Below, piece after piece: positions 1,835 through 28,900 of a stretch of 64,000 bases of DNA; positions within the stretch are counted from its first letter, which is position 1, and each line of letters starts with the position of its first letter. The DNA is from Escherichia coli (lineage in GTDB: Bacteria; Pseudomonadota; Gammaproteobacteria; Enterobacterales; Enterobacteriaceae). The stretch is taken from NCBI RefSeq assembly GCF_044324875.1, contig NZ_CP172185.1; one strand, 5' to 3'. The notes beneath the pieces were generated by a model, which was not told where the DNA came from, did no database searches, and saw only the letters and a list, made by a program, of their open reading frames with translations. The translations under genes and the position numbers were made by a program.

Positions 1835-2681
1835 AGGGTTCCTGACGTAAATAAATAGCCCGATAACAAATACTCACCAGCACTGCACCGCCGATAATAT
1901 TACCCAGCATCACCGGGAGCAGATTGGCGGTAATAAAATGGCTGACCGTCAGTGCCGGAAAATGGTCTGCGCTACTGTGCGCCAGTTGCCAGAAGGTGGT
2001 AGGGGCGAAATGGCGAATGGCAATGGCGAACGGAATCACAAACAAATTGGCGATACAGTGCTCAAAACCACTGGCGACAAACAGGGTGATGGGCAAAATC
2101 ATGGCGACGATTTTGTCGCATAACGAACGTCCGCAATAACTCATCCACAGCGCCAGACAAACCATCAGATTGCACATAATGCCGAGGCTGACTGATTCAG
2201 TAAATGTATGATGCATTTTGCCCTCGGCGCAGTGTAAAACCGCGACTCCCCACATCGCGTTTTCACTCATCACCAGCCCGGAAAACCAGGTTAACAAACT
2301 GAAACAGGCAATACCTGCCAGATTACCGCAGGCCACCAGAAGTGCATTAATCAGCCAAGTTCGCCAACTAATAACGCCCCGACTTTTTGCCATTACCGTC
2401 ATTACCGACGAGGTGAACAGGTTGGTGCCGCAAACCGCCAGCAAAATAAAGCCAAGTGTAAAGCAAAGGCCGCCCACCAGATGGGTTAATGCCTGTGAAG
2501 ACGGGGCATCGGCGATAACGGAAAGGTAAAAAGTAAATCCGATCGCCATAAACATGCCAGCGGACATCGCCATTAAAAAGACCGACACTTTACTGCGGGC
2601 AATTTTATGGGCGGCAATCCGTTCAGCGATTGCCGCTTTTCTGGCGCTCAACTGCAAGTCGAAAGAGAGTTTGTTTCTCAT
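1833..2681 (-). CDS. focB: Formate channel FocB (formate/nitrite transporter family)
   Basis: 282 aa membrane ORF immediately downstream of hyfR on the same strand; matches known FocB. Confidence 0.93.
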   Translation of the reverse strand: MRNKLSFDLQLSARKAAIAERIAAHKIARSKVSVFLMAMSAGMFMAIGFTFYLSVIADAPSSQALTHLVGGLCFTLGFILLAVCGTNLFTSSVMTVMAKSRGVISWRTWLINALLVACGNLAGIACFSLLTWFSGLVMSENAMWGVAVLHCAEGKMHHTFTESVSLGIMCNLMVCLALWMSYCGRSLCDKIVAMILPITLFVASGFEHCIANLFVIPFAIAIRHFAPTTFWQLAHSSADHFPALTVSHFITANLLPVMLGNIIGGAVLVSICYRAIYLRQEP

Positions 2682-2702
2682 GCATACTCCTGCAAAAACA
2701 GA

Positions 2703-4715
2703 TTACAACACCTCGCGAACCGAGATCCCCAGCCGCTGCATTCGTGACAGCAGCGTGGTGCGCTTCATCCCTAATCGCGTCGCCGCGCCACGGGGCCCGG
2801 CAACAATGCCATTGGTTTCTCGCAATACCTGAACAATGCGCTGACGTTCTTCTTCGTCATTCTCTGGCGTCGTCGGGTGCAGCAATTGCGCCATTGAACT
2901 GCGAAGCGCTGAATCTTCATTTAGCGTCGGCAGTAAACGGCTTTGTCGGACATTAAGATGTAAATTCAGACTGTTACCGCGAGTCAGTAGTACCGCTCGC
3001 TCAATCACGTTTTCCAGCTCGCGCACGTTGCCCGGCCAGTCCCACGACATCAACTGGCGTAGCGCCTCGGTCGGGATGGCGTCAATTGCGCGATTCATAT
3101 GGCGCGCCATTTTTTGCGTGAAATGCTTTGCTAAAAGAGGGATATCTTCCGGACGGTCGCGCAGCGGCGGCAATTCCAGTGGGAAGACATTCAGGCGATA
3201 AAAGAGATCGCTGCGAAACTGGCGATCTTCAACCATTTGCCACAAATCACGGTTGGTGGCGGCAATGACTCTGACATTTACCGGGATCGTTCTACTCCCG
3301 CCGAGACGCTCAATCTCCCGTTCCTGCAATACGCGCAGCAGTTTAGGCTGAAGTTCTAACGGCAGATCGCCAATTTCATCGAGAAACAACGTGCCGCCAT
3401 CGGCAATTTCAAAACGACCACGATGGGTATTAATCGCACCAGTAAACGCCCCTTTGTCATGACCGAATAACTCACTTTCCAGAAGACTGGCGGGGATGGC
3501 AGCGCAGTTGATTTTGACCAGTGGCTTGTCGCGTCGTGGGCTAAGTTGATGGATCGCTCTGGCGATCACCTCTTTGCCGGTTCCGGTTTCACCACAAATC
3601 AACACCGTACTGTCGCTCTTCGCCACAATATCTACCTGCTGGAGCAAATCTTCCATTGCCTGGCTTTGATAGATAATGTCACCGACGCCCAGATTCGAAA
3701 GGAGCTGCTCGCTAAGCTGGTGGTTTTCTTGCTGCAAGCTTTCCTGCAAATCGGTCATGCTGCGCCAGGCATCGGCATTGCCAACGGCAATAGCGATGCG
3801 ATCGGCAATATGTTGTAGTAGCTGGCAGTTTTCCTCACTAAAGAGAGTGGAAGAGGTATGCGCCAGCAACAATGCGCCCGGTGTATGGTTGCCAAAGGTG
3901 AGCGGTATAAGGAGCGCAGATTCGCAGCCGTTAGATGCAAGTAAGTGTAATAACGGGTCGCGTTGCCAGAGAAACAGATCGTCTGCACGGTGCGTCAAGG
4001 TCGGTTGTCGGGTTTGTAGCGTTTGTGTCAGCAATACACTTTCGCCAGGCATACAGCGTGGCAGACACGCACAATGTGAGGCAGAAAGATCGCTGCACCA
4101 CAGGCTGAACTTCTCGTTCTTTCGATGATCGCCCAGTACCATACTGACTGAAGCCAGACCGAAAAAATGATGGATCTCACGAGCGACGTCAGCGATCAGA
4201 TCGTCGAGATCAAGATGTGACAGCACTGCATTAGTGATATCCACCAGTACCCGATGATGATCGCGATCTTTCTCCAGCAAACGCAGCGCCACCTGTTGTT
4301 CTTCATCATTGAGCCATGATTGCAGAACCGGGGTGATAATGCGTGCCAGCCAGTTAAACAGTGTGCAATCCTGGGGAGTAAAACGCCTGCCGTGGGTACG
4401 AATAAAGCGTAGCTCCGCCATTCCACTACTGCCGAGAAGGACGGCGTGACGCGAATAATCGACCATCTCGCCCTGATACTCTGTTGTTGCCGTCACATCG
4501 CTGCCATCATCATGGTAGCGGTAATAGAAGTTGCTTTTGAGAACATGCAGTTCAATAAGTTGTACCGGGCTGAACGGCGGCGGCAGCGGGATGAAGGCGC
4601 GTAATAAAGACGCCTTGCCGTGTTTCTGCGCTAACCGCTCCGCGAGCATTCCGTTTACCGCTTCAATTGTTATTCCTTGCGGCGGGGCAAACATCGCCTC
4701 GTCTGACATAGCCAT
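2703..4715 (-). CDS. hyfR: Sigma-54-dependent transcriptional activator of the hyf operon (FhlA-like)
   Basis: Contains GETGTGKE Walker A and GAFTGA sigma-54 contact motif, C-terminal HTH; ATG at 4715 gives 670 aa (track ORF begins one codon earlier at a TTG). Confidence 0.93.
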
Positions 4716-18891: not shown

Positions 18892-19044
18892 CGGCAGGAA
18901 AACGCGATTTTAGCGGTAATTCGCACGAAATTTGTTTGTCGGACGTCGTTCGGATAAAGCGTTCTTGCCGCATCTGACAAAACATCCGGCACACCAGACA
19001 GCAAAAGATTTTAAAACGTTAATTCACACCCAGGAGTGATAAAG

Positions 19045-22892: not shown

Positions 22893-23591
22893 ATGAAACA
22901 TGACCATTTTGTTGTTCAAAGCCCGGATAAACCTGCGCAACAGTTGTTACTGCTTTTCCACGGTGTCGGGGATAACCCGGTGGCAATGGGGGAAATAGGC
23001 AGCTGGTTTGCGCCGCTGTTTCCTGATGCGCTGGTGGTGAGTGTCGGTGGCGCGGAGCCGAGCGGTAATCCGGCGGGGCGTCAGTGGTTTTCGGTGCAGG
23101 GTATTACGGAAGATAATCGCCAGGCGCGTGTGGATGCCATCATGCCGACGTTTATTGAAACGGTGCGCTACTGGCAGAAACAGAGCGGAGTAGGGGCTAA
23201 CGCCACGGCGCTAATCGGTTTCTCTCAAGGCGCGATTATGGCGCTGGAGAGCATTAAAGCCGAACCGGGCCTTGCTTCGCGCGTCATTGCCTTTAACGGA
23301 CGGTATGCGAGCCTGCCGGAAACCGCGTCTACAGCCACGACAATTCACTTGATTCATGGTGGTGAAGATCCGGTTATCGATCTGGCGTATGCGGTTGCGG
23401 CGCAGGAAGCGTTAATCAGTGCCGGTGGTGACGTGACGCTGGATATCGTGGAGGATTTAGGCCATGCGATCGACAATCGCAGTATGCAATTTGCCCTGGA
23501 TCACTTGCGTTATACCATTCCGAAACATTATTTCGACGAAGCGCTAAGCGGCGGTAAGCCTGGCGATGATGATGTGATTGAAATGATGTAA
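22893..23591 (+). CDS. ypfH: Esterase YpfH (alpha/beta hydrolase)
   Basis: 232 aa from ATG 22893 (MKHDHFVVQSP...) with AAGGAG SD; GFSQGA (GxSxG) nucleophile motif. Confidence 0.92.
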   Translation: MKHDHFVVQSPDKPAQQLLLLFHGVGDNPVAMGEIGSWFAPLFPDALVVSVGGAEPSGNPAGRQWFSVQGITEDNRQARVDAIMPTFIETVRYWQKQSGVGANATALIGFSQGAIMALESIKAEPGLASRVIAFNGRYASLPETASTATTIHLIHGGEDPVIDLAYAVAAQEALISAGGDVTLDIVEDLGHAIDNRSMQFALDHLRYTIPKHYFDEALSGGKPGDDDVIEMM

Positions 23592-23604
23592 TAATAGCCG
23601 GGTA

Positions 23605-23682
23605 GGCCTGATAAGACGCGTGATGCGTCGTATCAGGCATCGTTCACCATTGCCGGATGCGGCGTTAACGCCTTATCCGGCC
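23605..23682. repeat. REP/BIME element (two REP palindromic units) between ypfH and ypfN
   Basis: gtaggcctgataagacgcg...gcgtcgtatcaggcat and tgccggatgcggcgttaacgccttatccggcc, the classic E. coli REP (PU) signatures. Confidence 0.75.
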
Positions 23683-23689
23683 ACTCAGC

Positions 23690-23890
23690 TCACTTCTTCG
23701 GTTGATCCTTTTTCGGCCAGTCGTCGTCATCGTCCCACTTATCGTTGAAATCACGATGCGGGGGAAGCTCCGGCTTGTTGGCGAGAAATTTCTTATGGTC
23801 GACGCGCTTGAGATCTTTAATCACGTTCAGCAGGACGCCTACCAAAAAGACAATCACCAGAATCCACCAATATTTAGCCAGCCAGTCCAT
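23690..23890 (-). CDS. ypfN: Small membrane protein YpfN (UPF0370)
   Basis: 66 aa from ATG 23890 ([23 protein letters not shown]...); one TM helix, acidic C-terminus. Confidence 0.8.
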
Positions 23891-25785: not shown

Positions 25786-25845
25786 ATGATTGAACGTGAA
25801 CTGGGGAACTGGAAAGACTTTATCGAAGTTATGCTTCGTAAGTAA
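25786..25845 (+). CDS. ypfM: Small protein YpfM (19 aa)
   Basis: ATG 25786 reads MIERELGNWKDFIEVMLRK then stop; AGAGAGG SD 6 nt upstream; two hairpins with a T-run follow; too short for the ORF track. Confidence 0.7.
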   Translation: MIERELGNWKDFIEVMLRK

Positions 25846-25910
25846 TTCCTGAGACAAAGTACAAACAACAAGAACCTGCTGAGCAGGTTCTTAATCGGAA
25901 AGTTGAAAAG

Positions 25911-25938
25911 GGCGACACATTGGCATGTCGCCTTTTTT
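25911..25938. terminator. Rho-independent terminator between ypfM and the 3' end of acrD
   Basis: 7-bp stem ggcgaca/tgtcgcc, 8-nt loop, TTTTTT; preceded by a second hairpin agaacctgc/gcaggttct. Confidence 0.6.
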
Positions 25939-25943
25939 ATTGC

Positions 25944-28900
25944 TTATTCCGGGCGCGGCTTCAGCGGGAAGCGGCGGCGCACCAGCACAAAGAACAGCGG
26001 CACGAAGTAAATAGCCAGAATAGTGGCCGAAATCATCCCGCCCATTACGCCAGTACCCACCGCATGCTGACCACCGGAACCGGCACCCGTGCTGGTTGCC
26101 ATTGGCAATACGCCGAAGATAAATGCCAGCGAGGTCATCAGAATCGGGCGTAAACGCTGACGGCAGGCGTGGAGCGTCGCTTCAAACAGGTCGTGGCCTT
26201 TTTGGTTCATCTCGTTAGCAAATTCGACGATCAGGATGGCGTTTTTCGCCGATAAACCAATGACCGTTAACAGCCCCACCTGGAAGTAAACGTCGTTTTC
26301 CAGCCCGCGCATCCAGGTTGCCAGCAGCGCGCCGATAACCCCCAGCGGCACGACCAGCATTACCGAGAACGGCACCGACCAGCTTTCATACAACGCAGCC
26401 AGACACAGGAATACCACCAGCAAGGAAATGGCGTACAGCGCCGGAGCCTGCGCGCCGGAAAGTCGCTCCTGATACGACATCGCCGTCCACTCCAGACCAA
26501 AGCCGTTTGGCAACTGCTTCACTAACGATTCCATAATATCCATCGCCGTACCGGTACTGACCCCCGGTGCGGCTTCTCCGACAATCTCTACTGCAGAATA
26601 ACCGTTATAGCGTTCCAGACGCGGCGAGCCTGTCTCCCAGCGTGATGTCGCGAAAGCAGAGAAGGGCACCATGCCGCCATCTTTATTTCGGACATACCAG
26701 AGATTGATGTCATCTGGCAGCATGCGATATGGCGCAGCTGCCTGCACATAGACTTTCTTCACGCGACCGCGATCCATAAAGTCATTCACATAGCTCGAAC
26801 CCCAGGCGGTTTGCAGTGTGTCGTTAATATCGTCGATAGCAACGCCCAGCGCCTGAGCTTTACGCTGGTCGATATCAATCTGCAACTGCGGACTGTCGTC
26901 GAGGCCGTTATGGCGCACACGGGTTAGCTCCGGGTTTTCCGCTGCCAGCGCCAGCAACTGGTTTCGTGCTGCCATCAGCGCATCGTGACCCGCTCCAGCG
27001 TGGTCCTGCAACTCCATATCAAAACCCGCAGAACTGCCAAGACCGCTAATTGCTGGCGGGCTGCTGGCGATAACGCGAGCTTCTTTAATCTTGTTAAACG
27101 CCTTCGTTGCACGTTCGATAATGGCAAACGAGGTGCCGGTCTTACTGTCGCGTTCGCTCCAGTCTTTCAGGCGGATAAACATTCGCGCCACGTTTTGCCC
27201 GTTACCCCCAGGGCCAGAACCAACGGTGGCAAACACCGACATGATGTTGTCTTTTTCATGGGTGAAGTAGTATTTCTCGATTTGCTCAACGACTTTCAGG
27301 GTCTGTTGTTGGGTTGAACCGCTGGGCAACTGTACCGAGGTAGTAAACATGCCCCGGTCTTCCAGTGGCAAGAACGACGTCGGCAAACGCAGGAACAGGA
27401 ACACCATGCCGCCAAGCAGCAGGACATAAATCACAATCCAGCGCAGGCTACGGTGGAGAATTTTCGCCACCCCTTTTTCGTAGCGTTCGGCGTTGCGGTT
27501 AAACATCTGGTTAAACCAGGCAAAAAAGCCTTTTTGCCCGTGATGCTCACCCTTTTTCAGTGGCTTAAGTAGCGTGGCACACAGAGCCGGAGTGAGGATC
27601 ATCGCTACCAGTACTGACAGCACCATCGCCGCAACAATGGTAATAGAGAACTGGCGATAGATGGCACCGGTGGTGCCGCCGAAGAAGGCCATTGGTACAA
27701 ATACCGCCGAAAGCACCATCGCAATCCCGACCAGTGCCCCCTGGATCTGCCCCATCGATTTACGTGTGGCTTCGCGAGGAGTGAGTCCTTCCTCACTCAT
27801 AATACGTTCGACGTTTTCCACCACCACGATGGCATCATCCACCAGCAGACCGATCGCCAGCACCATCGCGAACATGGTTAAGGTGTTGACGCTGTAACCG
27901 AAGGCATAAAGTACGGAGAAGGTTCCCATCAACACCACCGGCACGGCGATAGTGGGTATCAGCGTGGCGCGGAAGTTTTGCAGGAACAGATACATAACGA
28001 GGAAAACCAGAGCGATAGCTTCCAGCAGCGTTTTCACCACGTCTTCAATGGAGGCTTTAACAAACGAGGTGGTTTCATACGCCACCTTGTATTCCAGTCC
28101 ATGCGGGAAATACTGCGCCAGCTCGTCAAGACGATTGAGCACCAGCTCCGCTGTCGCCATTTCGTTCGCGCCGGAGGCCAGTTTTACCCCCAACCCGGAG
28201 GCTGGCTTACCATTGAAGCGGCTAAGATAATCGTATTTCTCCGCCCCCATTTCGACGGTGGCGACATCGCCCAGCCTTACCTCTGAGCCGTCCTGATTCA
28301 CCCGCAAGGTGATATCGCGGAACTGTTCTGGTGTTTGCAGCAGTGACTGGGCGTTAATGGTGGCGTTGAGCGCCTGCTTATCGACGGAAGGCGTACCACC
28401 AAGTTGCCCAACCGCAATCTGCGCGTTCTGTGACTCAATGGCATCAGTGACATCTTTAGCCGTCATCTGGAAACTGTTGAGTTTCGCCGGGTCCAGCCAG
28501 ATACGCATGGAATATTGCGAACCATAGGCATCGATATCCCCAACGCCATTCACGCGGCTTAACGGATCCTGAATATTACTGGCAACGTAATCGGCAATAT
28601 CCTGTTTATCCATCGAACCATCGGTAGAGACGAAGGCAATGGTCAGAATGTTGGTATCGCCGGTTTTACGCACCGTCACGCCCTGATTTTGCACTGCCTG
28701 CGGTAACTTTCGCATGGCAGATTGCAGCTGGTTTTGTACTTGCTGCACGGCTTCGTCCGGATCGGTGCCTGCTTTAAAACTTAAAGTGACAGATGCCTGA
28801 CCGGTGCCACTGCTCTGAGATGACATATACATCAGATTATCGAGACCGGTCATATTTTGCTCGATAACCTGGGTCACGGTGTTTTCCAGCGTCTGGGCCG

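Follow-up and report, generated by a model that had tools for sequence, protein, structure and literature searches.

The ypfH-ypfN gap and its inverted repeats

The window analysed here is a stretch of 64,000 nucleotides (64 kb) of Escherichia coli DNA, and its positions 23592-23689 are exactly the 98-nt intergenic gap between two convergent genes, ypfH on the + strand and ypfN on the - strand. The ypfH CDS, which encodes an esterase, occupies 22893-23591 (+) and closes with the stop codon TAA at 23589-23591; the ypfN CDS lies at 23690-23890 (-), and its stop codon, TGA, is the complement of 23690-23692. The ypfH assignment draws on the list of open reading frames and on the annotation of NZ_AP022298.1, an E. 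coli chromosome with 100% identity across 701 nt, in which ypfH, ypfN and dapE are annotated at the corresponding positions. All three gene names were taken from that record and mapped onto window coordinates.

The ends of both genes differ in detail from those of K-12. In the window, ypfH terminates in three in-frame stop codons in a row (TAA TAA TAG, 23589-23597) rather than in the single TAA of K-12, while the TGA that ends ypfN in the window allele is replaced by TAA in K-12 and in the other E. coli alleles examined. Coding potential within the gap was also considered: a 42-aa and a 29-aa open reading frame, both with GTG starts, and a 74-aa frame antisense to ypfH run through the palindromes, ypfH or ypfN, and were treated as mechanical.

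From left to right, the gap begins with a 10-nt flank, TAATAGCCGG (23592-23601), which extends from the ypfH stop to the tetranucleotide GTAG and whose first six bases (23592-23597) form the additional in-frame TAA and TAG. This flank haplotype is common to O157/B2-type E. coli, E. whittamii and two further Escherichia species; K-12 has AAGACAGATTACCTGG at the same place. The GTAG itself (23602-23605, +) stands 5' of the foot of the first hairpin, and is evident both in the sequence and in the consensus match described below, which includes it as CTAC on the - strand. GTAG is the recognition determinant for the REP-associated transposase, TnpA-REP (Ton-Hoang et al. 2012, PMC3333891).

The first hairpin is a z2-type REP, GCCTGATAAGACGC-GTGAT-GCGTCGTATCAGGC (23606-23638, +), with a 14-bp stem containing one A.G mismatch and a 5-nt loop; the repeat finder placed its 14-nt arms at 23606-23619 and 23625-23638, with 93% complementarity. 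Between the heads of the two units lies a short (S-type) linker of 13 nt, ATCGTTCACCATT (23639-23651). The second hairpin, a y-type REP (23652-23681, -), reads GCCGGATAAGGCG-TTAA-CGCCGCATCCGGC on the - strand and GCCGGATGCGGCGTT/AACGCCTTATCCGGC on the + strand. Its 15-nt arms, at 23652-23666 and 23667-23681, are 87% complementary with no loop between them according to the repeat finder, and its stem has two mismatches. The gap closes with an 8-nt right flank, CACTCAGC (23682-23689), in which the alignments place CACT (23682-23685) at the position expected for CTAC; because of this replacement the y unit has no GTAG on its own strand, whereas the z2 unit has kept its tetranucleotide. Compared with K-12 and with sister species, the right flank is missing the 11 nt CTACGGTTGAG.

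The left arm of z2 and the right arm of y are 86% complementary to each other, indicating that the two units are related and lie in inverse orientation. The pair is wholly extragenic, between the stop codons of ypfH and ypfN. A reading of the same DNA made without database searches (the sequence-only reading) had proposed two REP units in opposite orientation filling this convergent gap; the palindromes, together with the consensus and naRNA4 matches given below, bear this out with coordinates that were exact, and "fill" is nearly literal, given that only the 10 nt of the left flank and the 8 nt of the right flank lie outside REP sequence. Neither the window nor any of the E. coli alleles examined has tandem multiple copies; each holds a single pair.

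Class assignment and the K-12 counterpart

REPs are imperfect palindromes of 30-40 nt with GTAG 5' of the foot, and fall into types y, z1 and z2 (Ton-Hoang et al. 2012, PMC3333891). The sequence-only reading had staked its REP identification on a formal alignment to the consensus. When this was performed, the IUPAC REP consensus GCCKGATGCGRCGYNNNNNRCGYCTTATCMGGCCTAC matched 23602-23638 on the - strand with 1 mismatch, and none of 100 dinucleotide-preserving shuffles of the window yielded a match. The Rfam model naRNA4 (RF02564) aligned over its full length (model positions 1-77 of 77) to 23605-23682 on the - strand, with a score of 85.7 bits against a gathering score of 59.5 bits (E = 7e-14 for the whole window). 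It was the sole Rfam family above threshold in the 64 kb; in and near the gap, the search for further families returned only chance-level snoRNA and miRNA matches (E > 0.5). As the Rfam model is in effect a y-linker-z2 REP pair, the match shows the sequence class of the element and not its function.

In palindrome length, consensus match and extragenic position the window pair agrees with an E. coli REP, departing from the textbook form in that its z2 stem has one mismatch where two are usual. On this evidence we regard the identity of the pair as REP sequence as virtually certain. Two arrangements of such units have been defined: BIME-1, in which z1 and y are joined by a long L linker to which IHF often binds, and BIME-2, in which a short S linker joins z2 and y (Ton-Hoang et al. 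2012, PMC3333891). Having y and z2 in inverse orientation around a 13-nt S linker, the window pair falls within the definition of BIME-2. Judged by its sequence, then, the element in the ypfH/ypfN gap is a single BIME-2-type REP pair (z2, 13-nt linker, inverted y). It shares with the BIME-2 family the inverted units and the short linker, but consists of a single pair where a typical BIME-2 has tandem copies bordered by s, l or r motifs, and its y unit is without the tetranucleotide. The pair can also be described as a REPIN, in which inverted REPs can pair as one long hairpin (at -48 to -50 kcal/mol on the + strand here); the REPINs of Pseudomonas, however, are defined with identical units (Bertels and Rainey 2011, PMC3116915), whereas the arms of the window pair are z2 and y, with the partial complementarity given above.

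The window locus aligns to K-12, in which the element is known as REP180 and is placed in the class "Convergent" (Harris et al. 2026 supplement, bioRxiv 10.64898/2026.03.23.713779). REP180 (MG1655 approximately 2,592,963-2,593,071) occupies the same locus between the same flanking genes and has the same order of z2, 13-nt linker and y, with an identical linker and an identical y core. It differs from the window element in several respects. The gap is 109 nt in K-12 and 98 nt in the window; REP180 has lost the GTAG of z2 (flank AAGACAGATTACCTGG) and kept CTAC and GGTTGAG after y, while the window has kept GTAG and lacks those 11 nt; and where K-12 has GTGA/GC in z2 the window has GTGAT/GT, which closes one of the two stem mismatches.

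In the same supplement (Harris et al. 2026), the K-12 y hairpin (MG1655 2592977-2593015, -20.9 kcal/mol) appears as entry 200 among bidirectional terminators between convergent genes, flagged "gene_convergent_transcription" for both Log and Stationary. The y hairpin of the window has a core identical to that of REP180 and an equal computed energy. We take the list of bidirectional terminators to derive from the work of Ju, Li and Liu in 2019. Data obtained in K-12 transfer to the window allele only by inference, because of the 11-nt deletion beside y, the closed z2 mismatch and the different left flank. The RefSeq record of MG1655 has no repeat_region features at the ypfH/ypfN gap or at REP325; since REP325 is likewise without annotation there, the missing REP annotation at the gap is uninformative.

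REP325 provides a second comparison in K-12. Direct comparison with the window revealed that each of its six units consists of y, a 13-nt linker beginning AAYGGTG, and z2. The window pair aligns to the REP325/naRNA4 model at all 77 positions with no gap in the linker, and both hairpins and the linker start AAYGGUG are conserved. The 3' half of the linker differs, with GAACGAU in the window pair against CCGACU in REP325/naRNA4, and so does the setting: REP325 is a set of six tandem pairs within the yjdM-yjdN operon, between tandem genes, while the window has one pair between convergent genes. The latter setting had been called typical for such elements by the sequence-only reading, and published counts agree: of the REPs of E. 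coli, about 60% fall in gaps between convergent genes, and a REP is present in 207 of the 704 gaps of this kind (Harris et al. 2026 preprint, bioRxiv 10.64898/2026.03.23.713779).

The element is thus already known. It is REP180 in a minority allele, a member of the long-described REP/BIME-2 class, and nothing in it departs from that kind. K-12 has 584 REPs (Ton-Hoang et al. 2012, PMC3333891), and the median number of places matched by our short queries was 3-4 in each E. coli genome.

The gap holds the one intact REP pair of the 64 kb. Five half-site matches elsewhere in the window (11698, 34105, 37269, 45369 and 47694) were considered as further REPs and set aside, as they have no palindromic partner and look like chance. 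In the bamC-purC gap (18931-18975) we observed a decayed single REP with a weak fold (-14.5 kcal/mol) and further substitutions relative to K-12. Its K-12 counterpart is REP181 (Harris et al. 2026 supplement), which still reads GTAGTTCGGATAAGGCGTTCACGCCGCATCCGAC. A separate observation concerns the yffB-acrD region near ypfM, where Rfam STnc250, an sRNA that binds Hfq, matched positions 25825-25944 (+) below threshold, with 34.9 bits as opposed to a gathering score of 42 (E = 0.005); at the corresponding place, STnc250 scored 42-55 bits in E. albertii, E. whittamii and two Citrobacter genomes.

Allelic variation and the gap in related genera

The comparison across strains that the sequence-only reading had suggested found the locus in 5425 of 5426 complete E. 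coli genomes, with a polymorphic gap. By comparing window positions 23592-23689 with extracted loci L001, L003, L005-L009 and L011, we distinguished three major E. coli gap alleles: (i) a 109-nt K-12 type, (ii) an 80-nt O157/B2 type and (iii) the 98-nt window type. The K-12 type has CTAC and GGTTGAG in its right flank and lacks GTAG because its left flank is AAGACAGATTACCTGG; the K-12 query was covered to at least 80% in 2861 genomes. The O157/B2 type combines the flanks of the window with a z2 unit that is short of its central 11 nt and a linker short of 7 nt. The O157 query was covered to at least 80% in 2350 genomes, nearly all with truncated-z2 forms, and on that account the full z2 unit is evidently dispensable. 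The window type (GTAG flank, full-length z2, no CTAC) occurred in only 43 of the 5426 complete genomes, as counted with a 66-nt query diagnostic for the GTAG flank plus full z2 at a coverage of at least 80%.

The y hairpin and its immediate context were invariant in a four-sequence alignment, with two substitutions among additional variants. Three individual strains carry larger changes at this unit. In strain 14EC047 the 11 nt CTACGGTTGAG beside the y unit are duplicated in tandem. In strain J6, a 110-bp duplication joins the GATGCGG of the y unit to a GATGCGG inside ypfN, copying the 3' end of that gene and creating an annotated 34-aa "hypothetical protein". In strain SK1402 (NZ_AP046545.1; extracted locus 2569-4003), an IS1397 copy sits in the loop of the y unit, flanked by a 4-bp TAAC target duplication. 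IS1397 inserts specifically into BIME palindromic units, according to the account of Clement et al. 1999 given in PMC3333891, and its presence in the y loop of SK1402 therefore provides natural and independent support for recognition of the sequence as a REP.

For the wider comparison, a degenerate pattern for the 3' end of ypfN recovered 24 loci from species representatives, and the gap was extracted from each; an earlier pattern (y unit plus ypfN end) had given no matches over the species-representative contigs. Neither scan recovered the main E. coli representative or E. fergusonii, though both patterns match K-12 and B2 sequences; the two were probably missed through a gap in the coverage of the collection.

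Within Escherichia, a 108-nt gap containing z2, the identical 13-nt linker and y was found in E. whittamii, Escherichia sp. E1V33 and Escherichia sp. MOD1-EC7003. The tetranucleotide on the z2 side of these gaps is GTAG, except in MOD1-EC7003, which has GCAG; that on the y side is CTAC, or CTGC in E1V33, followed by GGTTGAG. From these sequences the 108-nt form of the sister species looks ancestral, in which case the window allele would be derived by the loss of 11 nt and the K-12 allele by the loss of GTAG. E. albertii has a longer version of the same z2/y pair, and in CP089930 ("E. coli E69") the order is swapped, as GTAG-y ... z2-CTAC. All five genomes gave naRNA4 scores of 75-93 bits, with E69 matching on the opposite strand.

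Outside Escherichia, Citrobacter sp. R56, NCU1 and C. koseri, as well as Kluyvera genomosp. 3, K. georgiana and K. ascorbata Colony413, have REP-like pairs of their own in the gap, and a plain GC hairpin takes this place in Kluyvera genomosp. 1, K. cryocrescens, K. intermedia, Phytobacter and C. amalonaticus. The sequence-only reading had called the element a marker of an E. coli-type chromosome; this holds at the level of the genus, the same class of pair being present in five other Escherichia genomes, while Citrobacter and Kluyvera have their own variants or none. In K. cryocrescens (extracted locus L032 1075-1112) the gap reads A7-CGGGCTACC-GTAT-GGTAGCCCG-T6, the shape of a bidirectional intrinsic terminator. 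The terminator scan gave no match on the K. cryocrescens gap despite its A7-stem-T6 form, probably because the A and T tracts are taken by the scan as part of the stem. Enterobacteriaceae MGYG-HGUT-00110 and Kluyvera sichuanensis have a different, long palindrome in the gap, CCCGGCGTCGCGTTGCTC.GCCGGGCTAC ... GTAGCCCGGC.GAGCAACGCGACGCCGGG, which may represent another repeat family; that of MGYG-HGUT-00110 contains a y-like REP within its loop. Across the genera examined there is always a strong symmetric hairpin in the gap, and it is the kind of hairpin that turns over.

The pair probably originated through the REP-associated transposase, and now looks inert as a mobile element. TnpA-REP needs both GTAG and a stem mismatch, along with a C|T cleavage site in an inverted REP (iREP) or in the linker, and y units in inverted orientation are without type I cleavage sites (Ton-Hoang et al. 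2012, PMC3333891). In the window z2 has GTAG and one mismatch, and the inverted y unit is without a CC|TAC site; the appearance of inertness follows from z2 alone combining GTAG with a stem mismatch, from the loss of CC|TAC by y and from the general lack of type I sites in inverted y units. Whether the indels among alleles could be natural footprints of cutting and rejoining by TnpA-REP, instead of replication slippage, was also considered. The 11-nt unit TACGGTTGAGC is present in 0, 1 or 2 copies among alleles, the K-12 lineage is short of 8 nt that include GTAG, and one Escherichia lineage has y and z2 in swapped order. What speaks for footprints is that the left breakpoint of the 11-nt unit can be placed exactly at GGCC|TAC, the site at which an inverted REP is cleaved in vitro (iREP-II site) (Ton-Hoang et al. 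2012, PMC3333891). At the other end of the unit the break would fall at C|A, however, and as the C|T dinucleotide is indispensable for TnpA-REP cleavage in vitro (Ton-Hoang et al. 2012, PMC3333891) this weakens the case, and we consider an origin of the indels as footprints very doubtful. If it were true, the locus would be an allelic series recording the activity of the REP transposase in vivo.

Possible action at transcript ends and competing explanations

As RNA, the z2 and y hairpins had computed folds of about -22 and -21 kcal/mol, respectively, on either strand. RNA fold z-scores were about -5 on both strands, and none of 200 shuffles folded equally well. Owing to the palindromic nature of the pair, each of the convergent transcripts would end in two stable hairpins of about -21 kcal/mol each. 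On the + strand, a fold in which z2 and y cross-pair is the minimum-energy structure of the 98-nt gap (-48.3 kcal/mol, versus -43.4 for two local hairpins), and it reaches -50.2 kcal/mol when the flanks are included.

A scan of the gap for Rho-independent terminators found none on either strand, and inspection of the sequence found no A- or T-run flanking the hairpins. A canonical intrinsic terminator was therefore rejected as a description of the element, there being no U-tract after either hairpin. The likeness to a bidirectional intrinsic terminator is nonetheless considerable: a symmetric GC-rich hairpin lies where two convergent genes meet, the list of bidirectional terminators includes the K-12 counterpart, and in Kluyvera species this gap contains a canonical terminator. 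What separates the window hairpins from these is the missing A-tract and U-tract on their flanks.

We consider it most likely that the hairpins act locally as a bidirectional 3'-end element. The ypfN mRNA would meet the y hairpin first, and the ypfH mRNA the z2 hairpin. Without the aid of a U-tract, the hairpins would reduce read-through into the opposing gene, possibly with the help of Rho, and would block 3'-to-5' exonucleases, in this way fixing the 3' ends of both mRNAs as well as their steady-state levels. An effect on translation is also possible, in that hairpins near stop codons may stall terminating ribosomes. The z2 hairpin begins 14 nt after the ypfH stop (10 nt when GTAG is counted) and the y hairpin 8 nt after the ypfN stop. 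As both start within 15 nt, both belong to the class of REPs, at most 15 nt from the stop codon, for which stalling of terminating ribosomes and lowered translation are described (Liang, Rudd and Deutscher 2015, as relayed in PMC12306157). At the level of DNA, the y unit would in addition be a candidate gyrase site.

The class, architecture, position, conservation and polymorphism of the pair come from the present comparisons; its function we infer from the K-12 counterpart and from the REP family, and by that analogy a role at the 3' ends is somewhat favoured. REP325 has been described as a partly Rho-dependent, partial terminator and a stabiliser of upstream mRNA, and convergent gene pairs with a REP are more highly expressed; the same study reported no general difference in half-life for REP-terminated mRNAs and a strong dependence on context (Harris et al. 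2026, bioRxiv 10.64898/2026.03.23.713779). A 3'-end role gains support from positional equivalence, because the same gap in other genera holds REP pairs of their own or plain GC hairpins. It is weakened by the missing U-tract, the lack of a general half-life difference, cross-pairing on the + strand and the frequent truncation of z2. Our confidence in the full explanation, a BIME-2 pair that is the counterpart of REP180 and acts as a 3'-end element, is high, a grading that mainly reflects the identity of the pair.

The heavy structural polymorphism of the gap, with three major alleles around flanking genes that are retained, could be expected of a selfish or neutral relic, that is, a decaying non-autonomous mobile element (REPIN) lying in a permissive convergent gap with no host function. 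Most alleles that have the left flank of the window carry an internally truncated z2, the 11-nt unit varies in copy number as described, GTAG has been lost in K-12 and CTAC in the window, an insertion of IS1397 has been tolerated, the gap is without a REP in some genera, and a decayed REP relic lies nearby in the bamC-purC gap. The y hairpin tells against such decay: it is the part that was invariant in the four-sequence alignment, it is present in all six Escherichia lineages examined, and in K-12 it is listed as a mapped bidirectional terminator; every genus examined, moreover, has kept some stable hairpin in the gap. We therefore think a functionless relic unlikely. The y unit, which is canonical and has two stem mismatches, also bears on the proposal that the y/z2 pair is primarily a DNA-level site that recruits gyrase and relieves positive supercoiling between the convergent units. 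BIME-2 elements are enriched in sites of gyrase cleavage, which favour y units, at their loops and mismatched stem positions, and do not depend on transcription; cleavage is nevertheless limited to some BIME-2 elements, among which multi-copy ones such as those at sucC-sucB and tldD-yhdP stand out (Sutormin et al. 2018). The window has a single pair, and ypfH, ypfN and REP180 are absent from the supplementary Topo-seq files of that study that were examined. Gyrase binding by the pair is plausible given its y/z2 composition, as documented for a subset of BIME-2 elements, while a primary role of this kind appears distinctly unlikely.

Two further proposals concern binding partners other than gyrase. 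The full-length, above-threshold match to naRNA4 would be consistent with transcription of the pair and its processing into a two-hairpin nucleoid RNA that binds HU and condenses the chromosome, a role proposed for the REP325 units (Qian et al. 2015); yet REP325/naRNA4 do not measurably compact the nucleoid, and REP-REP contacts are absent (Harris et al. 2026), so that we judge an RNA of this type to be extremely improbable here. The sequence-only reading had also mentioned IHF binding, a property that belongs to BIME-1 (RIP/RIB) elements. The left unit of the window pair is of the z2 and not the z1 type, a linker of 13 nt takes the place of the long L motif, and the IHF consensus WATCAANNNNTTR has no match in 23592-23689 even at 1 mismatch. 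This part of the earlier reading fell away, and a BIME-1 element, refuted at the sequence level, has practically no chance of being the correct description. Action of the hairpins as a 3'-end element remains our preferred reading of the pair.

In itself the gap is of small importance, catalogues of REP and BIME sequences in E. coli going back decades and the locus being known in K-12 under the name REP180. It nevertheless constitutes a natural allelic series that comprises the full pair, truncated z2, loss of GTAG, loss of CTAC, changes in the copy number of the 11-nt unit and an IS1397 insertion. This series, together with the alternation of REP pairs and terminators across genera, makes it a convenient test locus for the debated effect of REPs on the 3' ends of flanking genes.
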